Origin: a virus
Length of the DNA: 64,000 bases
Strand: one strand, 5' to 3'
Virus record (IMG/VR): IMGVR_UViG_3300035193_000045
The position numbers and the translations under genes were made by a program. Shown piece by piece: positions 2,990 through 47,811 of the stretch (within the stretch, counting starts at the first letter, position 1; each line of letters opens with the position of its first letter). Below the pieces are notes generated by a model. It saw only the letters and a program-made list of their open reading frames with translations, had not been told where the DNA came from and did not search any database.

Positions 2990-3811
2990 TTAAGCAGTAG
3001 CTCCTTGCCTAGCCTTTAAAGCACTAACTACTTGATTAGGTAATTGATTGCTACTTTCCAGTAAAGCAACCGCATGATTTACGCTAACTCCCCCAATATT
3101 ATCAACTCCTTGCTCTGCAAGATTAAGTAATTGCCCCATCATCTCAGACTTCTTTAACGTTTGCCCTTCGTTCTTTTGTCCAATAAAAGCCTTATTTAAA
3201 GGTTGAACCGATGTAGGCTTTCTAATAGGGGCCTCGCTATAATTGTCCATAGATTTTTTTAACTCAGAAATAACGCTCATTGCATCTTTTAACCCAGTAG
3301 CAACAGAAACCATACTTTTCGCAAGGGTAATATTAAACGTATGCTGGCGCATAGCATTGCTATTTAATTCCCCTTCTAACGTACTAAGCGATTTGACCAA
3401 TCCACTATGTAATTCTGTTAAATAATCAGAAACATCTAATGATTTTTGAATAGTATCAGATTCTAAGGAATTAAGGACAGAATCTGAAAAATCATCAACT
3501 CCTTCCGTATTCGCATTCTCAGAACCACTTAAAGATTTAAATAATTCATTCATCTCTTCAGAAGAAAGATCATCCGTCATTGCTTTCTTAAGTAAAACAT
3601 CTTTTCGAGAATTTGGATCAGACGTATTAACATAATCAGTTAATACATTGATAGCTTTACTAAGATCATCCTCTGTTAAATCCTGTGATTTCTTAGTACC
3701 ACAAGCTTTCTCCTCATCTTCCATTTGAGAATCTTCATTCTCTCCCATTTCATCCATCTGATCCTTCTTGTTCTTCATCTCGTCATCATTTTGCATCGGC
3801 TGTCGTTTCAT
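2990..3811 (-). CDS. capsid scaffolding protein
   Basis: 273 aa, highly acidic and helical-looking, low complexity (MNDDEMKNKKDQMDEMGENEDSQMEDEE...); sits between prohead protease and capsid genes. Confidence 0.65.
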   Translation of the reverse strand: MKRQPMQNDDEMKNKKDQMDEMGENEDSQMEDEEKACGTKKSQDLTEDDLSKAINVLTDYVNTSDPNSRKDVLLKKAMTDDLSSEEMNELFKSLSGSENANTEGVDDFSDSVLNSLESDTIQKSLDVSDYLTELHSGLVKSLSTLEGELNSNAMRQHTFNITLAKSMVSVATGLKDAMSVISELKKSMDNYSEAPIRKPTSVQPLNKAFIGQKNEGQTLKKSEMMGQLLNLAEQGVDNIGGVSVNHAVALLESSNQLPNQVVSALKARQGATA

Positions 3812-3827: not shown

Positions 3828-4619
3828 TTAATGCAATTTATTTTGCAATTTTAAATCTCGAGCCAACGAGATTATTCTCCCTTTTAATTCAGGAGATATA
3901 TTAGGTAAATGATTAGATAGCCAATCAAATGCTTGACTATCCGTTAAACCCTTTTTTAAATTCTTTTTCTTTTTCTTTTCTAAAGATTCCTGAACAAGAA
4001 CCTGTCCGGCACTTTCCCCAGTTCTATCTCCGTCAACAGAATTACCTGGAATAGGGCTACCCATAGAAAGGGCTTTTGCTAATATATTCAATTGAGTATC
4101 TGTATTAACAGGGGCTTTTGTAATTGCTACTTCTCTAACAATTGCCTTTGTAACAGTAGACTTATTTAATGGATCTCTTCGTTGAATTTTCCCTTCAACC
4201 GAAAAACCCAATCTACGAGGGGTCTTATTTAAAGCGCATGCAAGGTTCCACAATTCATCAGCAGGTGGATAACCTTCAAGCAAATACCCCTCAGCCCAAT
4301 GACAATCTGCTTTTGCAATTTTTCCATCAGGCAATACATCGCCTTTTCGAAAACGCTCGGTTAACTCAGGGTACCCTACTAGATTACATGTATGACTCAC
4401 TTTAGGATTAGAATGATTATCATTAAACCATCCATATTTTACAAATTCAGAAAAGTCTAAACCATTTTGAATAAGAGTTTCTTCTTGTCTATCTGGAGTT
4501 TCTGTAGAAACAACTCCACCTATTCGGCGTTGTTGTCCTTCTGGAGCTGATGCTTTTGTAAAAAAAGAAGCTTCCCCAACAGAAAGTCTAAAATCATTTG
4601 TAGGAATTTCTTGAGGCAT
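3828..4619 (-). CDS. prohead maturation protease (HK97/S78-U35 type)
   Basis: RRIGGVVSTETPDRQEETL...GWFNDNH...GFSVEGK...EVAITKAPVN follows the order of His/Ser motifs in prohead serine proteases; located upstream of scaffold and capsid. Confidence 0.8.
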   Translation of the reverse strand: MPQEIPTNDFRLSVGEASFFTKASAPEGQQRRIGGVVSTETPDRQEETLIQNGLDFSEFVKYGWFNDNHSNPKVSHTCNLVGYPELTERFRKGDVLPDGKIAKADCHWAEGYLLEGYPPADELWNLACALNKTPRRLGFSVEGKIQRRDPLNKSTVTKAIVREVAITKAPVNTDTQLNILAKALSMGSPIPGNSVDGDRTGESAGQVLVQESLEKKKKKNLKKGLTDSQAFDWLSNHLPNISPELKGRIISLARDLKLQNKLH

Positions 4620-5270: not shown

Positions 5271-5583
5271 GTAATCTCTCCTTTTTTGCTTTTATCAATT
5301 GATCCCACGTATACCACCACTCATTTAATCTTTTCATTTCTTTTCTATATAAATACTTAGCTAACCGGCATATTCTATCACATTTTTCTTTTCTATTTTG
5401 TATTTGTTTTAATCTCTTATAAACCGGTAAGTCATTAATAGACTCATAATCTTTTACTGTAATATAGGATTCTTCGTAAACCTTACCAGTATAATCGTAT
5501 AACTTATACGTTATATATTGGTAAATTACAAATGGCGTACAAGTAACAGCTATTAGAAATATATAAAATAATTTAGACATCAA
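5242..5583 (-). CDS. single-pass membrane protein downstream of the sigma factor
   Basis: N-terminal hydrophobic helix LFYIFLIAVTCTPFVIYQYI; overlaps the sigma gene stop by 11 nt, suggesting co-translation. Confidence 0.55.
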   Translation of the reverse strand: MMSKLFYIFLIAVTCTPFVIYQYITYKLYDYTGKVYEESYITVKDYESINDLPVYKRLKQIQNRKEKCDRICRLAKYLYRKEMKRLNEWWYTWDQLIKAKKERLREKSSDKNR

Positions 5584-6358
5584 ATTCCTCCATAAAGTGT
5601 TTCATTTTTCTTAATGCCAATTTTTCTTTTTGACGAATCCACTCTCGTGTATACGTTTTTCCAGTTATCTCACTCCATAAATTTCTGATATCCTCTAAGG
5701 TATATTCTTCTAAGTATCTTTTTTCAATTATAAAACGTTCGAAGTGCGGTAATTTATATAAACACTTATTTAATTCAACTGATCTTTTTTTCACTAATTT
5801 ATCTTCGGCTGATTCCTGTGGAACCATTATACTTTCTAATAGAATTTCATTACCATAATCCGAAAAACATTGATCTAATTCCCCTGTTTTATTAATCAAT
5901 GATTTTTTAAACATTAATATATTATTGTAAACAATAGTAATATCTTTAGAAGTTATGGGCATATTTGTGTTTAAATCTTCTAAAGCATTAATAATGTTGT
6001 CTAATTCCGGATTTTCTCCATGTAAATTGTAATATTTACTCCAAAATTGAATAATTTTATTTCGAAGAATATTTTTTTTATTTGGCCATTTTAAAAAAGT
6101 AAATTTGGCCTGAGAACGAGTGATACTCGCTTTTATCCAATAATACGCCCAAGTAGAAAAAGCTACGTTTTTACTAGGATCAAAAGTTTTAGCAGCCAAA
6201 AATAATCCTAGTTTACCATCTTGCAAAACGTCTTCTTTCTCCAATTCTTCTGAAAAATAAGAATGCTTTTTAACGTAATGATATACTAATTTGATATTTG
6301 CATCAAATAATTCTTGGTACGAAGGGTTTAAATGTTTATCATCTAATGATAATTCCAT
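5573..6358 (-). CDS. sigma-70 family RNA polymerase sigma factor
   Basis: Region 2-like DGKLGLFLAAKTFDPSKNVAFSTWAYYWIKASITRS and region 4 HTH-like YTLEDIRNLWSEITGKTYTREWIRQKEKLALRKMK; GGAGG 6 nt upstream. Confidence 0.8.
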   Translation of the reverse strand: MELSLDDKHLNPSYQELFDANIKLVYHYVKKHSYFSEELEKEDVLQDGKLGLFLAAKTFDPSKNVAFSTWAYYWIKASITRSQAKFTFLKWPNKKNILRNKIIQFWSKYYNLHGENPELDNIINALEDLNTNMPITSKDITIVYNNILMFKKSLINKTGELDQCFSDYGNEILLESIMVPQESAEDKLVKKRSVELNKCLYKLPHFERFIIEKRYLEEYTLEDIRNLWSEITGKTYTREWIRQKEKLALRKMKHFMEEFDV

Positions 6359-6734
6359 TTATAGCCTCCATTAATTTTGATATATCATCACTTTTATCAA
6401 TAACCGGACAATATATCCCCATTTCATGATATTTATTATCTAAAACTCGTTTTGCTAATAAGGCATCTCCTGTATATACAATAACTGAAATACCAAATCT
6501 AAATTGAGCACATTCAACAATGTTCATTCCGAAATCTTTTTCCGGACAATCCCAATCTGTTATTACCAAACTATATTTGTCATGATACCTTTCTAAATTT
6601 GAAATGCCCATGCGAGCATTCAAAACATAAGACACTTTTACATCGTTATCCTGAAAATAAAAATCTATACAACGTTTAAGCATTTTACAAATTAATGGAT
6701 CATCATCCACTATTAAGATCCTTTTCTCATCCAT
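6339..6734 (-). CDS. stand-alone response-regulator receiver (REC, CheY-like) protein
   Basis: ILIVDDD acidic pocket, LVITDWDCP phospho-acceptor Asp context, VIVYTG and IDKS motifs. Start refined to MDEKR (ATG 6734, GGAGG 6 nt upstream); the track ORF extends to 6782. The 3' end overlaps the sigma gene by 20 nt. Confidence 0.75.
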   Translation of the reverse strand: MDEKRILIVDDDPLICKMLKRCIDFYFQDNDVKVSYVLNARMGISNLERYHDKYSLVITDWDCPEKDFGMNIVECAQFRFGISVIVYTGDALLAKRVLDNKYHEMGIYCPVIDKSDDISKLMEAINGIIIR

Positions 6735-6747
6735 GAAAACCTCCTTC

Positions 6748-6960
6748 CTATTCCTTTTCCATTTTCGCGTAAATGATGTCAACTACCTTTACCAAATCCT
6801 TTATTTTACGCGGATAAAGAACTTGTATTCGCTCGTAAAGAAGTAGATCACCCGACGTCTCGTACATCAATTCCCACTTCGTTTGTTGCTCTTCTGGCAA
6901 TTGCGTAATTTGCCATTTTATATCAAAATAAGGATCTTTAATCGCCACTCGTTTCATCAC
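6748..6960 (-). CDS. hypothetical protein (N-terminal KRVAIK tag)
   Basis: Begins (M)MKRVAIKDPYFD; AAGGAGG upstream; no other motif. Confidence 0.55.
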   Translation of the reverse strand: MMKRVAIKDPYFDIKWQITQLPEEQQTKWELMYETSGDLLLYERIQVLYPRKIKDLVKVVDIIYAKMEKE

Positions 6961-9240: not shown

Positions 9241-9996
9241 TTACTTTGTACGCATTTCCGCTTCTGATTTCGCGAGATAATAAATATTTTTACGAATCCA
9301 GTTACGCCCAACTTCTACGCGTTCAGTTGAGCAATGATAAACTGTACGCCAGCCATATGCCCCTGGATGATTCACAATAGTTTTTCCAGAGGGAGTTGTG
9401 TGATAGCCTGAATTGCCAACTAATTTCGGTTTTTGATTTTCGCGCTTTTTCGATCCTTCTACAACGACAACATAGACATGATTTGGAGCGCCAATTCGAC
9501 GCTTAATTGCGCGGCTAACCCAGTCAATCAATTCGTCATTGGCATCTATCCCAGTAACGCTCTCCCACAACAATGCATGGATTTTTGTTTTTATACGCTC
9601 TTTTCGACGACAAGCAAGTTCTTTTTGACCGATACGTATTTCGCGTGAAAATTTTTCTTTTGCTTGAGCGTTACCAATTTTAATTCCAGCATAGTATTTT
9701 TCAGTTTTTTCTGTAATCAAGAGACCTATTTCTTTTTTTGCTTCGTGCAATTCCGCGCGCAATCGTGCAATTTCAGCGTTAAATTTCTCACCACCTTTTT
9801 GTAGTTCATCGATTGCGGCCGCAATACGCAACTCACCGTCGGCTTTTTGCTCAGACAATTGTTTTTCCATCAACTCGCAACGCTCTCTCCATTTATTAGC
9901 ACGTGCTCGCTGCCTCTCAGCCCTAATGGCCAAATCTTCTTTTGATTTCGCTTCGAAATCTCCACACATTTCAACTACTTTGTCGTAAGGTGTCAT
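9241..9996 (-). CDS. hypothetical coiled-coil protein
   Basis: 251 aa; N-terminal two thirds are heptad-like and charged (ERQRARANKWRERCELMEKQLSEQK...); the C-terminal domain is unknown. Confidence 0.6.
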   Translation of the reverse strand: MTPYDKVVEMCGDFEAKSKEDLAIRAERQRARANKWRERCELMEKQLSEQKADGELRIAAAIDELQKGGEKFNAEIARLRAELHEAKKEIGLLITEKTEKYYAGIKIGNAQAKEKFSREIRIGQKELACRRKERIKTKIHALLWESVTGIDANDELIDWVSRAIKRRIGAPNHVYVVVVEGSKKRENQKPKLVGNSGYHTTPSGKTIVNHPGAYGWRTVYHCSTERVEVGRNWIRKNIYYLAKSEAEMRTK

Positions 9997-10093: not shown

Positions 10094-10363
10094 CTAAATA
10101 AAACAGCTAAGCAAAATGGGTTGATCTAACTTGTTCCAAACACCAGTATTGAGCCACATTTTCGATAAAGTGACCCATCGATCAATAGCAAACTGGGCGT
10201 GGATTATTTTATCAGTTGGCAACTGTTGCACCCTTTTAAAAGATTCCAAATGTCTTTTCCTAATATTTTTTGGAAAAAGATGGATAATAGGCAATACATC
10301 CGATAATATAGAGGCTTTCCATTCGTCCATTTCCTTCTCCTTTTGTCGTGTTTCAGCGTTCAT
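10094..10363 (-). CDS. hypothetical protein, first gene after sigma54-like promoter A
   Basis: Track start is 10363. An in-frame ATG at 10330 has AAGGAG 6 nt upstream and is the more likely start (MDEWKAS...). The first 11 codons belong to the leader that is conserved with 47765-47798. Confidence 0.6.
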   Translation of the reverse strand: MNAETRQKEKEMDEWKASILSDVLPIIHLFPKNIRKRHLESFKRVQQLPTDKIIHAQFAIDRWVTLSKMWLNTGVWNKLDQPILLSCFI

Positions 10364-10376
10364 GCCTTTAAGTTAG

Positions 10377-10393
10377 TGCAAACGGTGTGCCAA
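10377..10393 (-). promoter_or_regulatory. sigma54-type -24/-12 promoter element A
   Basis: Minus strand reads TTGGCAC-ACCGT-TTGCA, an exact fit to TGGCAC-N5-TTGCW; predicted start is near 10366. Confidence 0.55.
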
Positions 10394-10548
10394 ATATTGA
10401 AATTTAATAAATTCAAATACTTACAAAATATAGGAATTAAAGGCTTTATGAAAACTTTGCGTAGTTAAACCATATTCTTAAGGTTTTATCACTAAAAACT
10501 TAAGTAAAACAACCATTTAGTAAACTATGCATATTTTATAAATACCTA

Positions 10549-10591
10549 TACCTTTTTGCATATATTCGATACTAATCTATGCAAAAAGGTA
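10549..10591. promoter_or_regulatory. 14-bp perfect inverted repeat in the divergent control region
   Basis: TACCTTTTTGCATA (10549-10562) / TATGCAAAAAGGTA (10578-10591) with a 15-nt spacer; about 150-215 bp upstream of both sigma54-like elements. Confidence 0.5.
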
Positions 10592-10726
10592 ATACTCTAT
10601 AAAAAAATTGCAAATATATAAAATCATTATCTTTATATAAAATTTTTAATTCAATAAACTTTTATCTACGCAAATTTTACTTTAAACGAAAATCTTAAAA
10701 CCTAAGCATATCAATACTTTTAATTT

Positions 10727-10743
10727 TTGGCATACTATTCGCA
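10727..10743 (+). promoter_or_regulatory. sigma54-type -24/-12 promoter element C
   Basis: TTGGCAT-ACTAT-TCGCA with GG-N10-GC spacing. Followed by GGCTTAAG, as in element A (AACTTAAAG), and then TAAGGAGG. Confidence 0.4.
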
Positions 10744-10763
10744 TAGGCTTAAGTAAGGAGGCA

Positions 10764-10994
10764 ATGAAAATGAATACAAAAGTATATTTAGTTTACAAAA
10801 TAGTAAAAACAAAAAAAACAGATAACCGATTCCATAGAATAGCCTACTACTTCAACGTAGAAAACGCATACGCGCATGCCACGCAAAACCCGGAATATTT
10901 TGTAATGAGCATCTTTCCTACTATTTCCGAATTATCTTGCTTACATGATAAATCCCAACAGGAAATACAAGAACTAATCAAAAAAGAAAGATAG
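10764..10994 (+). CDS. hypothetical protein, first gene of the plus-strand block
   Basis: TAAGGAGG at 10754-10761. The ATG at 10770 has better spacing than the one at 10764. Confidence 0.6.
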   Translation: MKMNTKVYLVYKIVKTKKTDNRFHRIAYYFNVENAYAHATQNPEYFVMSIFPTISELSCLHDKSQQEIQELIKKER

Positions 10995-10998
10995 TAAA

Positions 10999-11256
10999 AT
11001 GTCTAGAAGATCAATGAAAGATGTTTTATACGACGTATTACTGGCACCAGATATAGAAAGATATAGGTATACAGTGGTCTATAAAGATCAAATGGTCTTA
11101 TATAGTAACCGTAAACCAAAAAAAGGATCGTATCCCCATATAATAATTGACAACCTAATTACCAACAGAAAATGGAGCAATGGTTGTTTTCATTCATGGG
11201 GACAATACAGAAAACAAATTCAACATCGAATCAAAACATTTTTCAAGGAGAAATAG
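10999..11256 (+). CDS. hypothetical protein
   Basis: 85 aa, basic; tiles 4 nt after the previous stop. Confidence 0.55.
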   Translation: MSRRSMKDVLYDVLLAPDIERYRYTVVYKDQMVLYSNRKPKKGSYPHIIIDNLITNRKWSNGCFHSWGQYRKQIQHRIKTFFKEK

Positions 11257-11260
11257 ACAA

Positions 11261-11479
11261 ATGTTAAGACAAAAAACATTCTACGTAAATAATCAAAAAA
11301 TCACAATAAAAAGCAGGCCAAAATCATATATGTGTAATCCAAATGGTTTTTACGTTTGGATTAATAATATAAAATACTGGTCACCTTATCTAGAGCGAGA
11401 AAAAGCAGAAGATCATTGTTACGTTCGATGGGTAAAACAAAATGTAGAACAAATAATCAAAGGAGAAATAGACAAATGA
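11261..11479 (+). CDS. hypothetical protein
   Basis: Start refined to MLRQKTFYV. The ATG at 11261 follows AAGGAGAAATAGACAA, a 19-mer repeated at 11460-11478. Confidence 0.55.
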   Translation: MLRQKTFYVNNQKITIKSRPKSYMCNPNGFYVWINNIKYWSPYLEREKAEDHCYVRWVKQNVEQIIKGEIDK

Positions 11480-11823
11480 CTAAACTAAACGATTTAGAAG
11501 AAACAATAAAAGGAGCCAGAATTCTTTTTTTGGCCGGGGAATATGTGGAATGCATTGATGAAATCATTCGTGCATATAGACTAAGTGATAGCTGCTTACA
11601 TGGACATTGGGGGACACCCCCTTGTCGAGACAAAAAAGACAAAGCAGGAAAACAACAATTCTACGACTTTACCTATATCTATTCATTATGCGACGAAATA
11701 TCAGACATTAAATTATGTCTAAAAAACACCCTAAAAAATGGGGAGCAAAGACCTTTTGTGGATTTTTATATGCAAGGCGAAGAAGACGAATACTATTTTC
11801 CAAATTATAAGGAGAAATTATGA
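11476..11823 (+). CDS. hypothetical protein
   Basis: Start refined to MTKLNDLEE; ATGA overlap with the previous stop; same AAGGAGAAATAGACAAATG initiation region. Confidence 0.55.
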   Translation: MTKLNDLEETIKGARILFLAGEYVECIDEIIRAYRLSDSCLHGHWGTPPCRDKKDKAGKQQFYDFTYIYSLCDEISDIKLCLKNTLKNGEQRPFVDFYMQGEEDEYYFPNYKEKL

Positions 11824-12059
11824 AAAAAATAAATAAATGCCAATTCTGCCAAAGTAATCCAGTATTACATTATCAAATAATCAATCCAGCATGCACAAAT
11901 ATATTCGTAATGTGCCCATCATGCCTAATGCGTGGACCAGCTATTACAATTAAAGAATATTTCCAATACACAAATTATTCAGAAATATTTATTAATCACA
12001 AAGAAGATGTAAATCGTACTATATTTTTTTGGAATAGTATGAGCTATGAAACTGAATAA
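11820..12059 (+). CDS. Lar-like (restriction alleviation family) zinc-ribbon protein
   Basis: CQFC...CPSCLMRGPA...FFWNS layout resembles the Lar family pattern (CPFCG...C..CG..GP....WN.R); ATGA overlap with the upstream gene. Confidence 0.4.
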   Translation: MKKINKCQFCQSNPVLHYQIINPACTNIFVMCPSCLMRGPAITIKEYFQYTNYSEIFINHKEDVNRTIFFWNSMSYETE

Positions 12060-12279
12060 CTGTAAAACCCACAACAAATCCCCATTTTCATACCTATGGG
12101 CAAATCACAAAGATTTAACATGCAAATGGGTAATTCGGTGCCCCGCATGTATGGGGTTAAACGAATTTGAATCAAATAGTACCATTTTCAAAGTTATCTA
12201 TTCAGAAGAAATAGATAAAATGAGAAAGGAAACCGAAGAAAAGTGGAATGCGAACAATCCAAAAGAAAGGATCGAATAA
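12046..12279 (+). CDS. degenerate Lar-like paralog
   Basis: CKTH...CPACMGLNEF...EKWNAN, the same layout with a decayed first CxxC. Confidence 0.3.
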   Translation: MKLNNCKTHNKSPFSYLWANHKDLTCKWVIRCPACMGLNEFESNSTIFKVIYSEEIDKMRKETEEKWNANNPKERIE

Positions 12280-12527
12280 TGGATTTCAATCAAATTAAAC
12301 CATTGGATGATGTTGATGCAGTAGAAATTGATGATGCTCAAAAGTGTTGTTATATCTTCATCAGAGACAATGTAGGATCATCTACTGTTGTGCTTTTAAA
12401 GGTTTCACATAATGGAAATATTAAAGCAGTCAATTCTTCACATTTACCAGTGGTAGACTGGATACCTTTTGCAAAAGGATATGAAAGGGCTTTGCAATAC
12501 GAAAAAATGGTTCGCTTTCTAAAGTAA
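12279..12527 (+). CDS. hypothetical protein
   Basis: Start refined to MDFNQIKP (TAATG overlap with the upstream stop at 12279). Confidence 0.5.
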   Translation: MDFNQIKPLDDVDAVEIDDAQKCCYIFIRDNVGSSTVVLLKVSHNGNIKAVNSSHLPVVDWIPFAKGYERALQYEKMVRFLK

Positions 12528-12564
12528 AGCAATAAAGACAACCCAAAAAGAAAGGAAAAATAAA

Positions 12565-12864
12565 ATGACAAAAATCGAAAAAGCACGAAAACTCATGAAA
12601 GATTTAGAAGAAGGAATCTATCTGTCAAATGAAGATTTACTATATCTATTTTGTCTCCATACATTATACTTAGGTATCGGATATAGACTCCCACATACAT
12701 TCATTTCTTCATTTTACCACGAAAATAGTTTAATGGAGATTAAAAGCCAAATTGACGATCAAAATAGCGTTAAAGAACTATATAACCAATTCAATACTGA
12801 AGCCGCTGTACTACAATTCATTTTGCTGTATGAGATAGGAAACACTACACATCTGATCAATTAA
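12565..12864 (+). CDS. hypothetical protein, last gene of the plus-strand block
   Basis: 99 aa; AAAGGAAAAATAAA upstream; converges on the minus-strand gene at 12861 with a 4-nt overlap. Confidence 0.55.
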   Translation: MTKIEKARKLMKDLEEGIYLSNEDLLYLFCLHTLYLGIGYRLPHTFISSFYHENSLMEIKSQIDDQNSVKELYNQFNTEAAVLQFILLYEIGNTTHLIN

Positions 12865-13061
12865 CGCTTAATGACATAACGCTCCTTCCCCCTTATAACT
12901 TTCGATAAATCAACAGGAAGTACTACTTTAATAGGCTCGCCACACCAATAACATTTAGAAGTGCATATATCCCCGTTCCAAATAATCCTACCCTTTACAT
13001 GTAATTTAAAACCGTCATCAGTTCTTTGAATTATTTGATTACGGCAATTAGGGCACTTCAT
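12861..13061 (-). CDS. zinc-ribbon protein
   Basis: MKCPNCRNQ...CYWCGEP: two CxxC pairs in 66 aa. Confidence 0.55.
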   Translation of the reverse strand: MKCPNCRNQIIQRTDDGFKLHVKGRIIWNGDICTSKCYWCGEPIKVVLPVDLSKVIRGKERYVIKR

Positions 13062-15432
13062 TTATATTGCCTTTAGTCCATTGTAATCTTCTAGTTACTA
13101 CAAATCTATTAATACCTTTATTCTTTTTTCGTGCTTCTTTCTTAGATTCTTTTACTGTATCAGGAATTACCAATTCTTTAACCGGTATAACGTTTTCACC
13201 AAATTGATAATCTTCTATGTCTCCATAGATACCTTTATTATCTTTTTGCTTCTTACGTTTTTTTAATTCTTCTTTGCCTATATTAAAGATTTCCTTATAC
13301 CGTATAGTTCCTCCACTACCAGGTTTCTTCACTTCTGTACCATAAAAATAATTCAATCCTAATCCTGGACCAGGGGATAAATCATAATTAGATTTATAGA
13401 TATTGCTTTTTAAATCATCCCATAATCTATATAATCTTTTATCAAATTTTTTCTTATTAGCTTCTGTTAAACTATTCAAAAAAGTTTTATCCCAAAAAGA
13501 TTTTACTTTACTATTAAAGTACTTAAAATCAGGAGAATTTCCTACTATTCTTTCAAATATATGATGTTGATTTGTATCTTTAAAATTACGAATAAATCTT
13601 TCCAATTCCCCAGCACCTTCATTCCAAAATGCATCAAATTCGGCAGATTGATTATAATATTCTTTACTATGCTCAGTTACTATGTTATGAACTTTACCAT
13701 ATCCAGCATTAAGATAATGAGATATTTCGTGAATAATAACTTTACTAGTTATTCTAGTGTCTAAATAAGTAGTATCATATGGATTCCTTAAATTAGTTAA
13801 CACTAATACATCTTTCCCATCATTAGTTTTACCAATACCATTGCCTCTAAAAACTCCTTTAGGAGTAATCAATATATGTAAATGTGATAAATTTTTATCA
13901 TTTGTAAATTGATTTGCCTGTATATAAACATTTCCATTTGAATCAAATTGCAAATTATCTTTATTATCCTTTACCCAACTAATTAATTCATCATAAAAAT
14001 TACTAGCTTTATTTCTCATTGATAAATTAGGATCTTTATAAGGTATAGTATGCTCAGCATTTGCCCATTTACCACCTTTAGGTCCTATGAATAAGGCTTT
14101 ATTTATTTCCTCTCTGTCTATGCCTACCCCACACCATCTTTTAAAAGCTTCGACATCCATAGAACTACAATCATAAATAAAATCATCCGGATTATCGTAA
14201 TTCATTCTATAGACATTTAATGCATGTTCTTCATTCCTAAAACCAAGCATACATTTTTGTTCATCATATAATTCATTATCAGGATTCTTTTGATCAATTA
14301 TATAAACTACAGGTGAATCTTTAAATGGTCCAACAAATACATCTAACTCTTCTTCATCCATAGAAGTGGTTCGTTTTACAAAACCATAAGATGCGCCGTA
14401 CATAATGGTTTCCCCTATTGAACCATCTCCATTAATCCATTTACGCTTATCCCCTTTTGGAGTTTCGATAGCAATAGGAATTCCTTGAAAAACTATATTA
14501 GCCTTAGCCTTTAAGGATTTATAAAAAAGATTTTCTTCAATTAAAGCCTTTTCTAATTCTTCAGGCTCTTGATAGATTTCCCCCAATTTACCTCCTGGTA
14601 CTAAATCACCTTCTTCATTAAATCCCCATCCCTTTGGAACACTAATCATGCTGCATACACAATTAGGATGAATTGGACCAACTACAACTTGCCAATCATT
14701 TTGTTTACGTCCTACATTACTCCCATGTTCTTCTAATGTAGATAATTTAAATATCCTAGGCTGCCCATCTGGACCAATATGTAAACGAATACAATGTTTA
14801 CATGCCCCTGGATTAGGTATACGCGCAACATAAACATCTTCTCCATACTTTTTTCTAAGGTAATCTGCTTGCCCTTGCTGTGTTGAATACATTATCTCAG
14901 TTACAGCAATTCGTTTCATATCCCTAGCCCAATCCCCAGTAGACCAACCTAAATCACTTCTAAGCTTTTCGATACTCTCTCTTCTTGCAGCATTTAAAGC
15001 AGTAAGATTTTTTATCTTATCCTCATACGCAATTCGAAATCTTTGATCTGCTTCTATCAAAGTTCTTCCCGTATCTTTTTCAATTACATTTCCTAATCCC
15101 ATACAATATTGTCCCGCATTTACTTGCGCCATACGAACAGCTCTTTGTTGCATTTGCGTTAACGGTTGTGGATTTTTTTGAATATAATCTTCAAATCTAT
15201 TATATGACATCTGTGAAGCTTGAGGACTATTTAATTTACCAAGCACTTGTCCGTATTCATATATTTTCTTAATAAGGTCCTTTGACTCTTTATTCAATAA
15301 CCCTTTATCTCGTAATTCATCAATCACTTCATCAGGTAACGCGTCATGACCAATTGTATTAGCTATAAATGCATTATGATGTAATTCAATTATATCTTGG
15401 ATTTCTAATATTTGATCAGGAGTTAACGGCAT
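13048..15432 (-). CDS. polyvalent head-morphogenesis protein (MuF/SPP1 gp7 domain + PPase-like region + HExxH zincin)
   Basis: CKHCIRLHIGPDGQPRIFKL...IHPNCVCSM is the MuF/gp7 signature. YGFVKRTTSMDEEELDVFVGP resembles inorganic pyrophosphatase. ALFIGPKGGKWANAEHTIPYKD is a shared module. VIIHEISHYLN is an HExxH motif. Confidence 0.75.
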   Translation of the reverse strand: MPLTPDQILEIQDIIELHHNAFIANTIGHDALPDEVIDELRDKGLLNKESKDLIKKIYEYGQVLGKLNSPQASQMSYNRFEDYIQKNPQPLTQMQQRAVRMAQVNAGQYCMGLGNVIEKDTGRTLIEADQRFRIAYEDKIKNLTALNAARRESIEKLRSDLGWSTGDWARDMKRIAVTEIMYSTQQGQADYLRKKYGEDVYVARIPNPGACKHCIRLHIGPDGQPRIFKLSTLEEHGSNVGRKQNDWQVVVGPIHPNCVCSMISVPKGWGFNEEGDLVPGGKLGEIYQEPEELEKALIEENLFYKSLKAKANIVFQGIPIAIETPKGDKRKWINGDGSIGETIMYGASYGFVKRTTSMDEEELDVFVGPFKDSPVVYIIDQKNPDNELYDEQKCMLGFRNEEHALNVYRMNYDNPDDFIYDCSSMDVEAFKRWCGVGIDREEINKALFIGPKGGKWANAEHTIPYKDPNLSMRNKASNFYDELISWVKDNKDNLQFDSNGNVYIQANQFTNDKNLSHLHILITPKGVFRGNGIGKTNDGKDVLVLTNLRNPYDTTYLDTRITSKVIIHEISHYLNAGYGKVHNIVTEHSKEYYNQSAEFDAFWNEGAGELERFIRNFKDTNQHHIFERIVGNSPDFKYFNSKVKSFWDKTFLNSLTEANKKKFDKRLYRLWDDLKSNIYKSNYDLSPGPGLGLNYFYGTEVKKPGSGGTIRYKEIFNIGKEELKKRKKQKDNKGIYGDIEDYQFGENVIPVKELVIPDTVKESKKEARKKNKGINRFVVTRRLQWTKGNINEVP

Positions 15433-17332: not shown

Positions 17333-17568
17333 TACCGCGCTCTCCATGTCCTAGGTTGTTCTCCAAGTAATTCAACAACTTCATCCATGTAAAATCCCCC
17401 TCTTTCAGCAATCCTTTCCGCAGACTGGGTATTATTCCATTTTTTATGATATGCTTCCCATACCTTTAAATGTTCTCCCCAAGAAATAAACCCATCAGGT
17501 ATACGTAGTAATTTACTGCCAATAACCCTTACTATTCGTTCTTCATCCATCAACCTACCTCTTTCCAA
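17332..17568 (-). CDS. hypothetical protein
   Basis: 78 aa; overlaps the stop of the giant gene by 19 nt. Confidence 0.55.
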   Translation of the reverse strand: MERGRLMDEERIVRVIGSKLLRIPDGFISWGEHLKVWEAYHKKWNNTQSAERIAERGGFYMDEVVELLGEQPRTWRAR

Positions 17569-20500
17569 AGTTTTTCAGAAGCACCTACATTCTTTGCCCA
17601 TTGCTCAAATACCATTGGATGGATATAACTAGCCTTTGCAATACTAGGAGTATTGTTCAATATTGTAGCTACTTTTTTACTTGTTTCCAACAACGCTTTA
17701 GCTAATAATCGTTTATCCTTTTTACTATCCCCGGTTAATGGAGGAGGAGTGTCAACTTCTTTTAATAATCTTTCAGCTGATTCCGTAGCCTTAATTGTTC
17801 TAAGGTCTTTTACTTTCATTCCTTTAGGAAGTATATTTTTTCCAATATCTAAAGCATTAGGATTAAATATATTACTATCTTCAGTAGCATTCCTTACATA
17901 ATACTCTAAGGCTTTTAATGTTACAGGATTCTGAACCACTGTAACATTCTTCTTACCTTCTTTACCAATAAAGTTTAAAACAGCCATTTTATTATTTAAA
18001 GCAATGTGATCCTTTTTTAAAGTACTTATACCGTAGTGACCATGCTTTTTAACACTTTCCATACTACCTGGACGTAATCCTGTTTCTGCAATAATAGCTA
18101 ATATAGTATGGCCTTGATGATCAATGCTACCAGGTTTTTCCTTAATTAATTTTTCATTCAATGTATTCACAATTTCTTTTTTCTTACTTCTAAATTTATT
18201 AATTCTATCCCATTTTTTCTTAGCATTTATTTCATGAAATTTTGGAGTATACCCACTTTGAACTTTCCCCTTAGTGTCTTTCCAAGTAATAATTGCTTTA
18301 CTATTTATATCACCAGAAAAATCTACTCTTACATCTGAAGCCGGAATAGTGGCTTGTGGTAACTTATCCACTTTTAATTCTTTTAATTTAGCTTGTACTT
18401 TACCAGGCAATTGAGAACCCGGAGGTTCCCTCTTAATAGGTTTATTTTCTACTTCATCTTTATAAGGTATAGTATGCTCAGCATTTGCCCATTTACCACC
18501 TTTAGGTCCTATGAATAAGGCTTTACGTAAATCAGATTCATTGATCGTAAAACCTTTTCTTATTTTAACTATTCCTGGATCTCCTTCTAGTATTGTAGCG
18601 TTGATACCTTGCTCACGTAAATTATTCATAGCTATTTTAGCATCATCTACGTCTATAGAAAAATTAGTTTGGTAGACATCATGGATATCGTCAGAAGCAA
18701 CTTTTTTAAGTTTTATATTCTTAGCGGAAACATAAGCTAAACTAGATTCCGCTTCTTTTACATTTTGCGGTTTTGATGGCCTTCCCCTACCTTGCTTAAC
18801 AGGTTCCTCTTTTATAGCTTCTCGTTTAAATGTAAGAGGTGGCTCTTTAATAGCCACTCGAGTCATTTTGTTCTTAGAACCAGGAGGTCTCCCTCGTTTC
18901 TTCTTTTCAGGCTCTTGAATAACCATTGAAGGAATAGCAACTCTTTTAATGTTTTTTGATCCAGGAGGTCTTCCACGTTTCTTTTTTTCAGGTTCTTGTT
19001 CAATTACTTCCTTAATTGGTTCCCTTATAACAAAAGCTAGTTTTTGTTCTTCTTGTTTAGGAACCTCTATGGGAATAACAGGAACATCGGGTTTATCTTC
19101 TTTAATAGGTAATTCCTTATTTTCTTCTATAGGCGTTTTACCTCCATGAATTTTATTCAATATATCACTGACGGTTAAGGGCTTATTCATCCATGCAATT
19201 TCTTCCTGCGTCAGCTTCTTTCCCTGATTTACTTTTTTAGATAATTCATATTTCCTTTTAATTATCTCCGTAACTGAAGAATCAAATAAATTATTAGAAG
19301 CGGTAACCCAATAAACATTTACGTTATTCTTTTGTCCAATTCTGTGTGCTCTATCCTCTGCTTGGCGCAAATCAGCAGCAGTCCAAGGTAAATCATTAAA
19401 AATAACTTTATCAGCAGCAGTTAAAGTAGCTCCTACAGCCATTGATTGGCGAGTAGTTATAAATACTCGTTTAGGAGAAACAAAATCACCGTTACCATCT
19501 GTTTTTTGAAACTCTTCCTTTACTGCTTCCCTTTTATCATCACTCATTTGTCCATGATGCAATAAGGAAATATTACCTAATTCTTCATGAATCTTTTTAG
19601 CTGCATCAACTGAATCAGTAAATACTATTATTTTTGAATCAGATGAATCTAATATCTCTTTAGCCAAATCAATAGTAGCAGGAACCTTTCCGATCGCTAC
19701 AGCAGCTTTAATTTTAGCAATTTCACCAATATCTTTATTTGCACCATAATCGGGTAAATTAGGTATGTCTTGTTGAATAATAGAAGTAACTTTTTCAGGT
19801 AAATCTTTTAAAACCTCTTCCTTACTCCTCGCAATATAGAAATCCTTCATATCACGCCAAAGTCCGCCAATAGTAGCAAATTTTATTTGATTTTTAGACG
19901 TAAATTTACCAGGTGCAACAACTTCCAACTGAGTAAATAATTCTTCTTTTTTATTTTTAACCGCCGTTCCAGACAATAGAATATGATGCTTTACTAATGC
20001 CGATACCTTTTGAATTGCTTTTGTCTGTTTAGCTTTAGGATTCTTCATCCTATGCGATTCATCAACCACTACTGTATCAAAACCAGCATCCTTTAAATAA
20101 GGATAAAACTTATTCAAAGATTCATAATTAACAGTTACAAGGTTCTTATCTTTAAGGTTTGGAACTCTATTATTTCTTATATCAGAAGATACTAATTCAG
20201 TTCCTTTAAACTGTCCTGGAAAAAACTTATCCGCTTCTTGTAGCCAAGTACGCCTTACTACTTTCGGAACAACTAAAATTGTTTTCTTATTTCCTTTAGC
20301 TAACCAAGCCAAAGTTTCAAGCGTCTTTCCAAGACCCATAGAATCCCCAATCAAAGCATTTCCATTTGTTTTATCTAAAAAATGAACTGCTTCATTTTGA
20401 TAAGGAAATAATGAATATTTACTGTCTAATAATTTCTGTACTTCAGGAATTGGCTTTTGTAATTCAGCTTGGTATCTCGCTTTTTCATTTTGTGCTTCTT

Positions 20501-22115
20501 TTAAGCCTTCTTCATCTATATATAACTTATAATTAGGCAATTGCTTCTTTATCTGTTGCAATGCTTCTTCTACTAAATTCAGTTCATGCGTTTCTCTAGC
20601 CCAATTATTGTCTTTATTTGCATAAAAAATACCAGACAATCCACCAGTTTTATTGGAAAATAAATCATTAAACTCTGAAGAATAGGTAGACCAAAAAGCA
20701 AATTTATCTTTACCTATTTTCTTAAGAACAATTGCATCTTTAATTCTTCTATCTTTAATGCTTTGCAAAGCTTCATCTACAGTAAGGTCCTTTTCATCTT
20801 TTTCAGATACTTTTTGTTTTCGTTCCCCCTTAATTGGATGAACTTTTATACCTATTTCCCCCATATCCTTCCTATAAGATTCAAAATCAAAATCATCTAA
20901 ATATTGTTCTTTAATAAAGTTCTCGCCGTTACTAAACCATACGTTGTATTTTTTATTAATGTCTCGAAACTTGCTAAAAGTTTCTCTATCAACCCTTCCA
21001 TCTACTGGAAGAGTGAGGCTCCCCCAAGTTTTATTGTAATAAGGTTTAATATCCGCTTTATAACCCTTACCTTCTCTTGTATCTGCTAATCCTAATTTAT
21101 GGTATTCTTCAATGCTATAGGCACCAACTATTTGACGTTTATATTTTTGAAGTAATTGCCGCTTTGCATTTACACCAGTTACAGATCTCCATCTGTCCAT
21201 ATCTACATAACTAAATCCAGTGTCGTCTTTTTCACGAGGATTAATTGCTTGATGACTATATAAAGCTTCACCTATTCTATCTAAAATTTGTTCAGCTTCT
21301 TCGTCACTATACCGTTCTTTAGTTTCTGAATAACTATGTACTTCGTCTTTCCAAGGTATAGTGTGTTCTGGATCAGCCCATTTACCTCCACGTGGACCGA
21401 TAAATGGGCCTTTTTGTGCTTTATTTAAAGCTTCATTGTAGTCTTCAATATAGGAATCTGTATCTATATCATAATGAAAATATGATATACCTTCATCTTC
21501 CCCTTTATTTAATCCATCTACTCTAATACCCGTATTGGGTTTAATTTGAATAGCTCGGTCATCCCAAAGTTCAGCCATATGCAGATCTTTTTCGTATACT
21601 ACCGGTAATTCTTCTCCAATATATTTTTTGCACCATTTCTTTATAGCGGTAATAGATGCTCTAAAATCACTAGAATTTGGATTTGCTCTAGCAGTCATAA
21701 TTTTTACATTTTTATTATTGGCAATCCATTCCTTAACTCTATCAACCATTTTAGGAATTGGCTTACCAATAGAAGCAGAGCCTTTATATTCATGGTATTC
21801 CGCTAATGTCCCATCTAAATCAACGCCAATCCAAGAAGGATTGGAACCAAGACTCTTATTTAATTTTCCCTTATCTAATACTTTACTTATATCCGCAAGC
21901 ATCATATTAGTTTGGTCTTTATAACCTATTTCCCATTGCTTTAATACTTCTAATAGAACTGGATCAGTAAACAATTTATCTTTATCATCTATAGCTTTAA
22001 TTAAACGATTCTTTAAATCAAAATCTACTTCCCCAATGTAATCAGCAATAGATTTTACTAAAGAAACTCTTTTAGAAAAAAGTTCTTCCTTATTTGCTTC
22101 TATTTGTATACGCAT
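17550..22115 (-). CDS. giant polyvalent protein: HAD phosphatase-like + SNF2 helicase + AT-hooks + type IB topoisomerase-like domain
   Basis: HAD: GVDLDGTL / MTAR / LWDDRA. SNF2: GDSMGLGKT, VVVDESHRMKN, LLSGTAVKN, QAEDRAHRIGQ. AT-hooks: two KKKRGRPPGSKN plus GRGRPSKP. Topo IB: LNFIGKEGKKNVTVV, VKDLRTIKAT, LNNTPSIAKASYIHP (Tyr codon 17625-17627). Also two FIGP[RK]GGKWA modules. Confidence 0.85.
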   Translation of the reverse strand: MRIQIEANKEELFSKRVSLVKSIADYIGEVDFDLKNRLIKAIDDKDKLFTDPVLLEVLKQWEIGYKDQTNMMLADISKVLDKGKLNKSLGSNPSWIGVDLDGTLAEYHEYKGSASIGKPIPKMVDRVKEWIANNKNVKIMTARANPNSSDFRASITAIKKWCKKYIGEELPVVYEKDLHMAELWDDRAIQIKPNTGIRVDGLNKGEDEGISYFHYDIDTDSYIEDYNEALNKAQKGPFIGPRGGKWADPEHTIPWKDEVHSYSETKERYSDEEAEQILDRIGEALYSHQAINPREKDDTGFSYVDMDRWRSVTGVNAKRQLLQKYKRQIVGAYSIEEYHKLGLADTREGKGYKADIKPYYNKTWGSLTLPVDGRVDRETFSKFRDINKKYNVWFSNGENFIKEQYLDDFDFESYRKDMGEIGIKVHPIKGERKQKVSEKDEKDLTVDEALQSIKDRRIKDAIVLKKIGKDKFAFWSTYSSEFNDLFSNKTGGLSGIFYANKDNNWARETHELNLVEEALQQIKKQLPNYKLYIDEEGLKEAQNEKARYQAELQKPIPEVQKLLDSKYSLFPYQNEAVHFLDKTNGNALIGDSMGLGKTLETLAWLAKGNKKTILVVPKVVRRTWLQEADKFFPGQFKGTELVSSDIRNNRVPNLKDKNLVTVNYESLNKFYPYLKDAGFDTVVVDESHRMKNPKAKQTKAIQKVSALVKHHILLSGTAVKNKKEELFTQLEVVAPGKFTSKNQIKFATIGGLWRDMKDFYIARSKEEVLKDLPEKVTSIIQQDIPNLPDYGANKDIGEIAKIKAAVAIGKVPATIDLAKEILDSSDSKIIVFTDSVDAAKKIHEELGNISLLHHGQMSDDKREAVKEEFQKTDGNGDFVSPKRVFITTRQSMAVGATLTAADKVIFNDLPWTAADLRQAEDRAHRIGQKNNVNVYWVTASNNLFDSSVTEIIKRKYELSKKVNQGKKLTQEEIAWMNKPLTVSDILNKIHGGKTPIEENKELPIKEDKPDVPVIPIEVPKQEEQKLAFVIREPIKEVIEQEPEKKKRGRPPGSKNIKRVAIPSMVIQEPEKKKRGRPPGSKNKMTRVAIKEPPLTFKREAIKEEPVKQGRGRPSKPQNVKEAESSLAYVSAKNIKLKKVASDDIHDVYQTNFSIDVDDAKIAMNNLREQGINATILEGDPGIVKIRKGFTINESDLRKALFIGPKGGKWANAEHTIPYKDEVENKPIKREPPGSQLPGKVQAKLKELKVDKLPQATIPASDVRVDFSGDINSKAIITWKDTKGKVQSGYTPKFHEINAKKKWDRINKFRSKKKEIVNTLNEKLIKEKPGSIDHQGHTILAIIAETGLRPGSMESVKKHGHYGISTLKKDHIALNNKMAVLNFIGKEGKKNVTVVQNPVTLKALEYYVRNATEDSNIFNPNALDIGKNILPKGMKVKDLRTIKATESAERLLKEVDTPPPLTGDSKKDKRLLAKALLETSKKVATILNNTPSIAKASYIHPMVFEQWAKNVGASEKLWKEVG

Positions 22116-28948: not shown

Positions 28949-29149
28949 TTAAATACATTTAATTATACTATGATCTTTACACCACTGCACTCCAACACCA
29001 TTTTGCATTTTTATACTATGATCTTTACACCACCGCACACCGACCCCATTTTGCGTTTTTATACTTGTAAACGCATCTTTGTTGTCCAATGTGATCGTTA
29101 TGCGATCACATTCACGATCAATCAAAAAAGTGACATTTTTAATCAACAT
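28949..29149 (-). CDS. hypothetical protein with internal 16-aa tandem repeat
   Basis: Begins MLIKNVT, identical to the XRE gene start. Contains NGVGVRWCKDHSIKMQ / NGVGVQWCKDHSIIKC. Confidence 0.5.
   Translation of the reverse strand: MLIKNVTFLIDRECDRITITLDNKDAFTSIKTQNGVGVRWCKDHSIKMQNGVGVQWCKDHSIIKCI
28965..29060. repeat. 48-bp tandem direct repeat, 2 copies (43/48 identical)
   Basis: 28965-29012 and 29013-29060, followed by a 5-nt start of a third unit. Confidence 0.9.
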
Positions 29150-29220
29150 TTTATATTTCCTTTCATTTAGGTATTAAAGTACTTAATTATACCTTAATAC
29201 TATTCCTCTAAATATTTTAC
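29129..29220 (-). repeat. 92-bp promoter/5' cassette, copy A
   Basis: 89/92 identical to 29765-29856. Spans the first 7 codons, the RBS and the AGGTATTAAAGTACTTAATTATACCT motif (29169-29194). Confidence 0.9.
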
Positions 29221-29224
29221 ATAT

Positions 29225-29785
29225 CTAGTCTACCCACCCACAAGTACAAATAATAGAAATAGGAACATCTATAATGATAGGAGAGGATGTGTCCAATTTA
29301 CAATTAACCCATTTACCATTATTAGGATCATTCTTATTTGACCAATAATCTGCATTCTCACATATATAATCAGCTATTATTAAAACCTCTTGAATATCGT
29401 CTTCTTCATCTATATTTACGTAATGCCTATGTGCTTTCTCTAAAAGCTCAATATCTTTTTTTGTAGGATTTTTTATAAGACACAAAGTAGGTGAATTTTC
29501 AGAAGTAACCCAAACAAGTAAAACATTATAATCTGCTAAGGTAAACGCTCCTAGGCTTTCTGCTGCACGTATATTTAATTCCTCAACAGGAATTTGAAGA
29601 AATCTCGCAATGCTTTCATTTTGAGTATCACTAAATGGAAATTGTTTAGCTCGCTCAATATCTGATACAGATGTAACTGACACTTTCAATGTTCTTGCAA
29701 GATCTCCAAGAGTTTTACCTTTTTTCTTTCTTTCCTCACGAAGGTATTCTCCATACAATCTTTTAGTGACATTTTTAATCAACAT
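29225..29785 (-). CDS. XRE-family HTH transcriptional regulator with unknown C-terminal domain
   Basis: KKGKTLGDLARTLKVSVTSVSDIERAKQFP is a typical Cro/CI-type HTH; 186 aa. Confidence 0.75.
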   Translation of the reverse strand: MLIKNVTKRLYGEYLREERKKKGKTLGDLARTLKVSVTSVSDIERAKQFPFSDTQNESIARFLQIPVEELNIRAAESLGAFTLADYNVLLVWVTSENSPTLCLIKNPTKKDIELLEKAHRHYVNIDEEDDIQEVLIIADYICENADYWSNKNDPNNGKWVNCKLDTSSPIIIDVPISIICTCGWVD

Positions 29786-29856
29786 TTTCTATTTCCTTTC
29801 TTTTAGGTATTAAGGTACTTAATTATACCTTAATACTATTCCTCTAAATATTTTAC
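29765..29856 (-). repeat. 92-bp promoter/5' cassette, copy B
   Basis: See copy A. Contains TATAAT on the minus strand within AAGGTATAATTAAGTACCTT. Confidence 0.9.
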
Positions 29857-29879
29857 GGCAAAATGGAGGTATTGTCTAT

Positions 29880-30182: not shown

Positions 30183-30274
30183 TAACCCAAGGAGAAGAAA
30201 AGGACATATGACATTAATTAATGTAACACCTATTGATAAATAAACAACTTAACTAATCATCTATTTACAATCCA

Positions 30275-42608: not shown

Positions 42609-42623
42609 AATATTTCCTTTCTT

Positions 42624-47543: not shown

Positions 47544-47798
47544 CTAGTCCGCCCACCCATCAAGCTCTCGCTGGATAGCCCCCTCGGACATCCCACCCAT
47601 GGTGAGAGCTAGTTCAGTTGCGTACCGCGCGGTGCAGGCATCATTGGTCATCCCGTCAACCGCTTCGAGACTGCCGACGTACCATGTGCCCTCGCAATAA
47701 TTCATCGCGCCGCCAAGTATCCGAAAATCTTCCAGTGCCTTGTCAAAGTCTTTGTACGCTTTCATTTTCCTTCTCCTTTGTTGTGTTTCAGTGTTCAT
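47544..47798 (-). CDS. hypothetical protein in a GC-rich island, behind sigma54-like promoter B
   Basis: The likely start is ATG 47765 (MKAYKDF; AAGGAG upstream). Hand count gives 37/60 G+C at 47521-47580. Confidence 0.55.
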   Translation of the reverse strand: MNTETQQRRRKMKAYKDFDKALEDFRILGGAMNYCEGTWYVGSLEAVDGMTNDACTARYATELALTMGGMSEGAIQRELDGWAD

Positions 47799-47811
47799 AC
47801 CCTTATGTTAG

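Follow-up and report, generated by a model that had tools for sequence, protein, structure and literature searches.

The 64,000-nucleotide (nt) stretch analysed here (IMG/VR record IMGVR_UViG_3300035193_000045), hereafter the window, is a portion of the DNA of an uncultured tailed phage of ~100 kb with 32% G+C, in which nearly every gene lies on the minus strand. The genes recognised in it encode a major head protein, a portal, a large terminase, a UvsX-like recombinase, SbcCD and a DNA polymerase. Its sole divergent intergenic region, at positions 10331–10763, divides the minus-strand genes from the single plus-strand block. Two short elements pointing outward from this region, hereafter P1 and P2, resemble the −24/−12 promoters of sigma54 (RpoN/SigL), and a weakened third copy, P3, is found 0.8 kb away on the downstream side of the terminase gene, preceded by an 11-bp terminator-like hairpin (47884–47911). 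All three are intergenic and each faces a gene. Their scores below refer to a position weight matrix (PWM) of sigma54 promoters.

10377..10393, minus strand: P1, −24/−12 element TTGGCACACCGTTTGCA, an exact TGGCAC-N5-TTGCA; top match of the window, 19.7 bits
10727..10743, plus strand: P2, −24/−12 element TTGGCATACTATTCGCA, TGGCAT-N5-TCGCA with GG and GC kept; second in the window, 14.0 bits
47812..47828, minus strand: P3, weakened third copy TTGGTATCCCGTTTGCA; fifth in the window, 12.7 bits

The −24/−12 elements and their conservation

The preliminary description of this DNA had proposed a divergent pair of sigma54-type promoters around a central inverted repeat, and every element that it named (P1, P2, the repeat and a box upstream of each promoter) is present in the window where it was placed. 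Scoring with a PWM made from 78 experimentally validated promoters (S2 Table, PMC12316311) bears out its two promoter calls, an exact consensus fit for P1 (10393–10377, minus strand) and a GG-N10-GC spacing for P2 (10727–10743, plus strand), which rank first and second in the window. The validated sites themselves score 10.9–25.7 bits (lower quartile 16.7, median 20.4), a range that takes in P1, P2 and P3, the last two in its lowest quarter. GG and GC stand 10 nt apart in all three elements (P3 reads TGGTAT-N5-TTGCA), and P1 is one base away from E. coli glnK (TGGCACACCGCTTGCA) in the validated table (PMC12316311). TGGCAC-N5-TTGCA and the GG-N10-GC spacing are likewise shared with E. coli glnAp2 and B. 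subtilis levD, rocD and acoA. The TTCGCA of P2 resembles the TTTCGCT of glnA, and the segment from −11 to +2, an AT-rich stretch followed by GG, resembles all six B. subtilis SigL promoters of the validated set.

Matches as good as P1 are expected 0.035 times in a random 64 kb. Within the 433-nt divergent region, the chance of a maximum at least as high as that observed is 0.0005 for P1 and 0.0045 for P2, and the corresponding value for P3 in its own intergenic region is 0.002. The pattern TGGCAY-N5-TYGCW occurs three times in the window, against 0.09 expected. Sites of the sigma70 type (TTGACA/TATAAT, 16–18 nt apart) never match at more than 9 of 12 positions in 10331–10763; none is on the plus strand, and their count is below that in shuffled sequences. 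P2 is therefore the only promoter candidate for the plus-strand block at 10764–12864.

The elements are better conserved than the DNA around them. Six distinct close relatives retain both P1 and P2 with 17 of 19 columns invariant per core (a C/T position at −22 is among those that change), as opposed to 196 of the remaining 331 intergenic columns, 41% of which vary. Related metagenome contigs are 97–104 kb long; the closest cultured relatives are remote, the head protein being ~38% identical to that of SPO1-like Bacillus phages, and the promoter region with 4 kb around it has zero nucleotide matches among 50,697 phage records. As a test independent of the motif, distant relatives were fetched by protein similarity to two cargo proteins and their contigs were then scanned with the PWM. 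In L165, whose cargo protein is 64% identical, the strongest match in 18 kb, TTTGGCACTGCGTTTGCAC with 18.0 bits, immediately precedes the homologous gene, and the next match reaches 10.3; this P3 ortholog has the full TGGCAC-N5-TTGCA. L173 and L174 belong to a different phage type that has a 251-residue cargo protein in common with the window, and in each the two best matches (15.2 and 14.7 bits; 14.3 and 13.8 bits) form a divergent pair in the intergenic region at the head of the cassette. The top match also lies in the cassette-head intergenic region in L172 (TTTGGCATATCGTTTGCAC, 13.6 bits) and in L170 (a P2-like TGGCAC-N5-TTGTA, 14.2 bits). The per-region chance values for these relatives run from 0.0000 to 0.007, and eight intergenic regions of several phages give 0.0005–0.007.

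The N5 spacer differs from one of these sites to the next (ACCGT, CCCGT, TGCGT, ATCGT, TTGTT, ACTAT, GATTG, AGTTA) and TGG.A. and TTGCA usually persist, which is the pattern of sigma54 recognition. Viral contigs of 45% and 57–62% G+C (L038, L059, L121 and L154) have comparable sites at the head of small-gene cassettes, and in the parts fetched they have no protein in common with the window except a distant terminase; sites in contigs without common proteins point to a universal host factor. Taken together, the sequence evidence suggests that P1, P2 and, more weakly, P3 are probably promoters read by the host sigma54 RNA polymerase holoenzyme. In two members of the high-GC clade (L059 5860–5890 and L121 835–865), the −24 element lies within a palindrome (CGGTGTGC-TTTG-GCACACCG; GGTGTGC-GTTG-GCACACC), a feature not seen in the window's clade that might be an operator overlapping the promoter.

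Several observations on the sites themselves weigh against a sigma54 reading. By the PWM alone P2 and P3 are unremarkable in 64 kb, where 1.15 matches of at least 13.4 bits are expected, and P3 of the window, with TGGTAT, is weak. The critical positions, kept in P1 and P2 of the six close relatives and in L165, L172, L173 and L174, are lost in other copies: P3 of the close relatives L166–L169 reads TTTAGTAC..., with TAGTAC in place of the −24 element (GG to AG, 5.8 bits) and an altered GGG at the predicted start; a P1-like copy in L170 reads TGGTAT-N5-TTTACA (GC to AC); and a second L170 copy, L170_x, reads TTGTAC-N5-TTGCA (GG to GT). The sequence downstream is retained in these copies. P3 of the window looks like a step in such a decay from TGGCAC. 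The main sequence-level argument against sigma54 is that the copies lacking GG or GC may be either dispensable and decaying, or members of an element that tolerates changes sigma54 should not. In addition, the later DNA scans, through which L038, L059, L121 and L154 entered the comparison, forced a CCGT spacer and CATGA, so that part of the likeness across clades was imposed by the patterns and the shared CCGT and CATGA are not evidence; protein-based retrieval was used instead. A first DNA pattern scan, with TTGGYAYNCCGTTTGCA, was too loose and was set aside, nearly all of its 119 stretches being chance or coding matches.

Two explanations that would dispense with a dedicated promoter of this type fare poorly against these data. 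Chance matches in AT-rich intergenic DNA would accommodate P2 and P3, which fall within the range of random PWM matches in 64 kb, but the rarity of P1-grade matches, the low per-region values in eight intergenic regions from several phages and the near-invariant cores make this scarcely credible. A Bacteroidota-type primary-sigma promoter, with TTTGG as part of a −7 box (TAnnTTTG), would draw on the TTTGG present in both sites and on a terminase 35% identical to those of Bacteroides phages DAC and SJC. We rejected this reading as highly improbable: none of P1, P2 and P3 contains an exact TAnnTTTG, no −33 TTTG stands at the right distance, the motif is absent from L038 and the high-GC copies, and strong AGGAGG-type ribosome binding sites precede most genes of the window. 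Bacteroidota largely lack strong Shine–Dalgarno (SD) sites of the AGGAGG type, and the strong SD use together with the 32% G+C argues against a Bacteroidota host.

Upstream sites, start regions and cassettes

Activator sites usually lie 60–200 bp upstream of sigma54 promoters, an interval in which repeated sites are found in the window too.

10549..10562, plus strand: left arm of the 14-bp inverted repeat, TACCTTTTTGCATA; 0 of 14 columns invariant; L001 and L142 have lost both this arm and the spacer by deletion
10577..10595, plus strand: conserved upstream block CTATGCAAAAAGGTAATAC (right arm plus GTAATA), the most conserved upstream element
10446..10463, minus strand: P1-side box TACGCAAAGTTTTCATAA, 71 nt upstream of the P1 TGG; 17 of 18 columns invariant in close relatives
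10667..10684, plus strand: P2-side box TACGCAAATTTTACTTTA, 61 nt upstream of the P2 TGG; 11 of 18 columns invariant, replaced in L001 and L142
47884..48024, minus strand: P3 upstream region with box TACGCAAATTTTTCAT (48024–48009), inverted pair and hairpin (47884–47911); blocks kept in the distant L165
47934–47946, plus strand, and 47926–47914, minus strand: P3 upstream inverted pair, TATGCAAAAAATA and TATGTAAAAAGTA

The 14-bp inverted repeat between P1 and P2 is perfect in the window, its right arm TATGCAAAAAGGTA at 10578–10591 matching the left at every base, and of 300 dinucleotide-shuffled versions of the region just 3 contain an arm of at least 14. It is not a conserved dyad: only the right arm and the adjoining GTAATA are kept, and 12 of 14 right-arm columns stay invariant even with the distant relative L170 added to the comparison. 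In L134, L135 and L140 one matching C-to-T and G-to-A change preserves part of the symmetry. The sigma54 interpretation in the preliminary description is supported by PWM, position, orientation and conservation, but the part of it that made the repeat a dyad for an activator does not hold in that form. The whole stretch at 10368–10752 is an imperfect palindrome of ~385 bp in which P1 mirrors P2 and the boxes mirror each other, so that the divergent pair is best described as an inverted duplication of one promoter unit with the 14-bp repeat at its centre. P3 extends the series, having ~70 nt of promoter and leader in common with P1.

The right-arm motif TATGCAAAAAGGTAATA recurs upstream of P3 and in L165, L170 and L173. 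It forms an inverted pair ~100–130 nt upstream of P3, an arrangement kept in L165, and stands in tandem copies between the divergent promoters of L173. The boxes upstream of the two elements, also named in the preliminary description, are both present, with TACGCAAA at 10463–10456 (minus strand) and 10667–10674 (plus strand), though two relatives lack the P2-side one. Exact copies of YGCAAANTTTTCAT number only two in the window, in the P1-side box and upstream of P3, and of the 13 occurrences of TAYGCAAA in the window, six fall in two stretches totalling ~310 bp (10456–10674 and 47934–48024), inside both promoter regions. The TAYGCAAA cluster and the conserved TATGCAAAAAGGTAATA block, at −60 to −200, would be good candidates for activator sites, the block at 10577–10595 being the best; a repressor could equally well bind them.

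Downstream of the −12 element, the three units run as follows.

10331..10376, minus strand: P1 start region and leader; AT-rich CTAACTTAAAGG, ATG at 10363, an unstructured A/C-rich leader, SD AAGGAGAAGG and the gene ATG at 10330
10744..10763, plus strand: P2 start region TAGGCTTAAGTAAGGAGGCA, with the SD directly after the predicted start and the gene ATG at 10764
47766..47811, minus strand: P3 leader, near-identical to that of P1, with an ATG at 47798 and the SD-led ATG at 47765

One detail of the preliminary description needs correcting here: the P1 gene has its SD-led start at the ATG of 10330, and the ATG at 10363 opens a short leader open reading frame (ORF). An ATG lies 14–15 nt past the −12 C in 18 of 20 sites, a soft statistic since not every one of the 20 sites is independent of the others; P2 departs from this pattern and has no near-start ATG. 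The near-start ATG runs in frame into the SD-led start in seven sites. In another seven its frame meets a stop within −3 to +7 nt of that start, the two often overlapping as ATGA; in three sites it serves as the start of the gene itself, and in only one does its frame end early. It has no usable ribosome binding site before it. The leaders fold no better than shuffled sequences (z from +0.3 to +1.9 for five ATG-type leaders, P1 at +0.99, and −0.6 for the P2 leader) and the window has no Rfam match, which leaves nothing to indicate a riboswitch or attenuator. The fixed, frame-coupled ATG would place the 5′ end where a sigma54 polymerase would start, 2–3 nt before the ATG, and suggests a near-leaderless short ORF, putatively translated and coupled to the first gene of the cassette. 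In L170, P1-like copies at 3760–3800 and 4130–4170 are without a near-start ATG and have instead a leader hairpin, GCCGC-N6-GCGGC, whose loops differ between the copies.

The genes that follow these leaders are small and change from phage to phage.

10094..10330, minus strand: first gene of the P1 cassette, 78 residues, no family match; the content of the slot differs in nearly every relative
10764..12864, plus strand: P2 cassette, ~8 small genes forming the only plus-strand block; the first gene varies between relatives
47544..47765, minus strand: first gene of the P3 cassette, 73 residues, with a homolog within the P1 cassette of L135

Because the first genes differ among relatives and the P3 gene has its homolog in another cassette, the units evidently head hypervariable slots and cargo moves between the copies. 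One gene of the P2 cassette (11820–12059) matches Lar-like restriction-alleviation proteins, and the nine other cassette genes scanned have no family match. The cargo protein in common with L173 and L174 is encoded behind P1 at 9241–9996 (minus strand; 251 residues) and is conserved, with 66–68% identity in those two contigs; one source calls its homolog P0019 a Txe/YoeB-family toxin, and it has no Pfam match at threshold. G+C rises to 43% downstream of P1 (8001–10000) and to 38–39% downstream of P3 (44001–48000), against ~31%, which suggests imported, horizontally acquired cargo.

These properties also bear on the idea that the units act mainly at cassette boundaries and in translation, as recombination anchors and leader or upstream ORF, with transcription coming from elsewhere and the −24/−12 match a relic. 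Turnover of the first gene behind P1 and P2 in nearly every relative, the exchange seen in L135, the G+C-rich cargo behind P1 and P3 and the copies in which GG or GC has decayed and the leader is intact would all be expected of such anchors. The plus-strand block, however, diverges from the minus-strand genes and has no promoter candidate other than P2, a terminator-like hairpin precedes P3, and the −24/−12 cores are more conserved than their surroundings and recur with other leaders and spacers in distant phages. As the main role of the units we consider this quite unlikely; it is compatible with promoter function and both could hold. A 22-nt repeat, CTAAGTACYTTAAATCATTAGTTTT, has one copy right after the first P1 gene (~10075–10054, minus strand) and one right upstream of P3 (~47875–47850, minus strand). 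Intergenic hairpins of the form ATTTAGGTA...TACCTAAAT, at 38831–38944, 42609–42694 and 47884–47911, are likely phage terminators.

Activator search and competing explanations

Sigma54 cannot start transcription without an ATP-driven activator, and the preliminary description had seen none in the window. Motif, Pfam and PHROG scans agree: GAFTGA is absent from the window and from the family loci checked, and neither an AAA+ activator nor a sigma54-interaction domain was detected by Pfam and PHROG among window ORFs of at least 150 residues (four of which were named from a relative's annotation instead). Beyond the window, the search for an enhancer-binding protein (EBP) took in other family loci and ~60 kb of a related contig of 102.6 kb and gave none, and a tblastn search with the NtrC AAA+ domain was empty in 437 kb of family DNA. 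That total includes the ~60 kb read directly from the related contig, of which ~91 kb is covered if the window stands in for the unread middle; followed to position 91,073, the contig shows only apparent tail genes, judged by ORF sizes. Among the 50,697 phage records, the same NtrC-domain query found only apparent bacterial contigs filed as phage, which makes phage-encoded activators of the NtrC class seem very rare. This adds to the points against sigma54 dependence: promoters dependent on sigma54 would have to be fired by a host activator or by an unconventional phage factor, and reliance on the host would be awkward for genes that look early.

The only regulators of the window are a sigma70-family sigma factor, a receiver-like protein and an XRE-type helix-turn-helix (HTH) protein (29225–29785). 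The first two lie together in the direction of P1.

5573–6358 and 6339–6782, minus strand: sigma70-family sigma factor gene and receiver-like gene, downstream in the P1 direction and followed by head genes

The sigma factor (261 residues, with Sigma70_r2 and r4; PHROG 351) is encoded directly behind the 147-residue response-regulator receiver-like protein, and the pair is kept in L170–L172. Phages are known to transcribe with host sigma70, with sigma factors of their own or with polymerases of their own. The units could be phage-specific promoters, read by this sigma factor with its receiver-like partner or by an unrecognised RNA polymerase, with a coincidental likeness to sigma54 sites. The genes at 5573–6782 are at hand for such a role, as is a 766-residue ORF at 24997–27297 without family or PDB match. 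The conserved block, about −27 to +12, is longer than a sigma54 site, and L166–L169 and L170 keep CACTAAC.TAA where the −24 GG or the −12 GC is lost. Promoters of T7-like single-subunit polymerases (K11, SP6) similarly have a long conserved block up to the start site, and L059 contains GCACACTATAG, which matches the core of K11/SP6-type promoters. That match, though, is found in one clade only, the other clades differing at −10 to −1, and no polymerase gene of this kind was found among the window ORFs; the resemblance loses most of its force because the six SigL promoters have the same AT-rich stretch followed by GG. Sigma70-family factors, for their part, read −35/−10 sequences and not GG-N10-GC, and the sites are poor −35/−10 promoters. 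The motif is also present in the different phage type of L173 and L174 and in phages whose fetched parts have no detectable protein in common with the window, and between clades only the sigma54-critical positions are kept, the spacer and −10 to −1 changing. A phage-encoded reader is on balance unlikely, though by no means negligible.

Under the sigma54 reading, the holoenzyme would bind GG at −24 and GC at −12 and wait as a closed complex until an AAA+ EBP, probably bound to the repeated TAYGCAAAA(A)GT sites 60–200 bp upstream, opens it. Because none was found in the phage DNA examined, this activator would most likely come from the host. Transcription would begin ~12 nt past the −12 C, 2–3 nt before the conserved ATG; the near-leaderless short ORF would cross the unstructured A/C-rich leader and, by in-frame fusion or by a stop at the SD-led start, pass ribosomes to the first gene of the cassette. 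Three promoter units would in this way serve small-gene cassettes in which the first gene varies among the phages, and P1, lying upstream of the phage sigma factor and head genes in the same direction, could gate the late programme.

A wider proposal is possible but held tentatively. Unrelated phage lineages from saline sediments may have recruited the host sigma54 polymerase for hypervariable accessory cassettes, possibly anti-defence, by means of a portable promoter–ORF–leader unit and without a conventional EBP gene. The units would be fired by a hijacked host activator induced by infection or stress, acting through TATGCAAAAAGT sites, or by a new kind of activator, and in the window's clade sigma54 would gate a late switch. 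If the promoters themselves are real, cassette expression would be tied to a host signalling protein, in effect a built-in sensor of host state; a −24/−12 element with an ATG 14–15 nt later would be a simple signature for accessory-gene islands in uncultured phages; and the unit could serve as a compact, tightly off and portable promoter–leader part. It raises the question of which activator fires these promoters during infection.

Comparison with known systems and neighbouring features

The preliminary description called sigma54-dependent transcription of phage genes very unusual, and a limited literature search found no report of it, though such absence is not proof. What is unusual is the setting: conserved, duplicated −24/−12 units in phages, at the head of hypervariable cassettes, each with a near-leaderless ORF in most cases coupled to the cassette gene, and an activator gene not found. 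Unlike bacterial sigma54 promoters, the phage units have an ATG at about +3/+4 with its coupled short ORF, and occur in several lineages with no cognate activator gene in the phage DNA examined.

Divergent sigma54 pairs are known in bacteria. The E. coli zra and hyc/hyp pairs reportedly have a divergent layout with shared central activator sites. As in the phage region, two outward −24/−12 promoters a few hundred bp apart, with candidate activator sites between them, are found in E. coli zraP/zraSR and hycA/hypA and at the sox locus of B. thuringiensis (PMC4941409). The validated table counts both zra promoters and both hyc/hyp promoters as sigma54-dependent (PMC12316311). The phage pair differs from these in being an inverted duplication, in having a central dyad that is not conserved and in having no regulator encoded next to it.

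The cassettes themselves recall phage morons and accessory hotspots, such as lambdoid morons and anti-CRISPR loci, in which a conserved promoter and leader precede small, fast-changing genes of foreign composition; the terminator-like hairpin upstream of P3 and the Lar-like anti-restriction gene add to the likeness. As far as is known, morons and anti-defence islands have sigma70-type promoters, often with a repressor such as Aca, as opposed to the −24/−12 type of the window units. As in leaderless mRNAs such as lambda cI transcribed from PRM, the start codon is at most a few nt from the predicted 5′ end and has no usable SD before it, except that the predicted 5′ untranslated region is 2–3 nt long and not 0, and that in most sites the ORF forms a short leader to which a gene with its own SD is coupled.

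Among the larger proteins of the window, that of 766 residues encoded at 24997–27297 (minus strand) adjoins the portal gene and has no PHROG or PDB sequence match, its Pfam matches being sub-threshold only. A 1521-residue protein with a helicase (17550–22115, minus strand) is a possible virion protein, as is a 794-residue protein (13048–15432, minus strand) with a central domain of ~130 residues common to phage minor head and DarB-like antirestriction proteins. The product of 43311–44135 (minus strand), kept in relatives, is DnaJ-like, with a J domain below the Pfam threshold, CXXCXGXG zinc-finger repeats and an anti-TRAP-like match. The window has no tRNA found in it.

Three further intergenic regions stand out. 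Those at 28959–29224 and 29786–30274, the latter unusually long at 489 nt, are closed by two near-identical blocks of ~75 nt (..TTAGAG-17 nt-TATAAT..AAGTACYTTAATACCTAAA..GAAAGGAAATA), which resemble a duplicated sigma70-type promoter with SD, one of them preceding the XRE-type HTH gene. The region at 32153–32389 contains a short tandem run of ATATT repeats, atattatattatattatatta.

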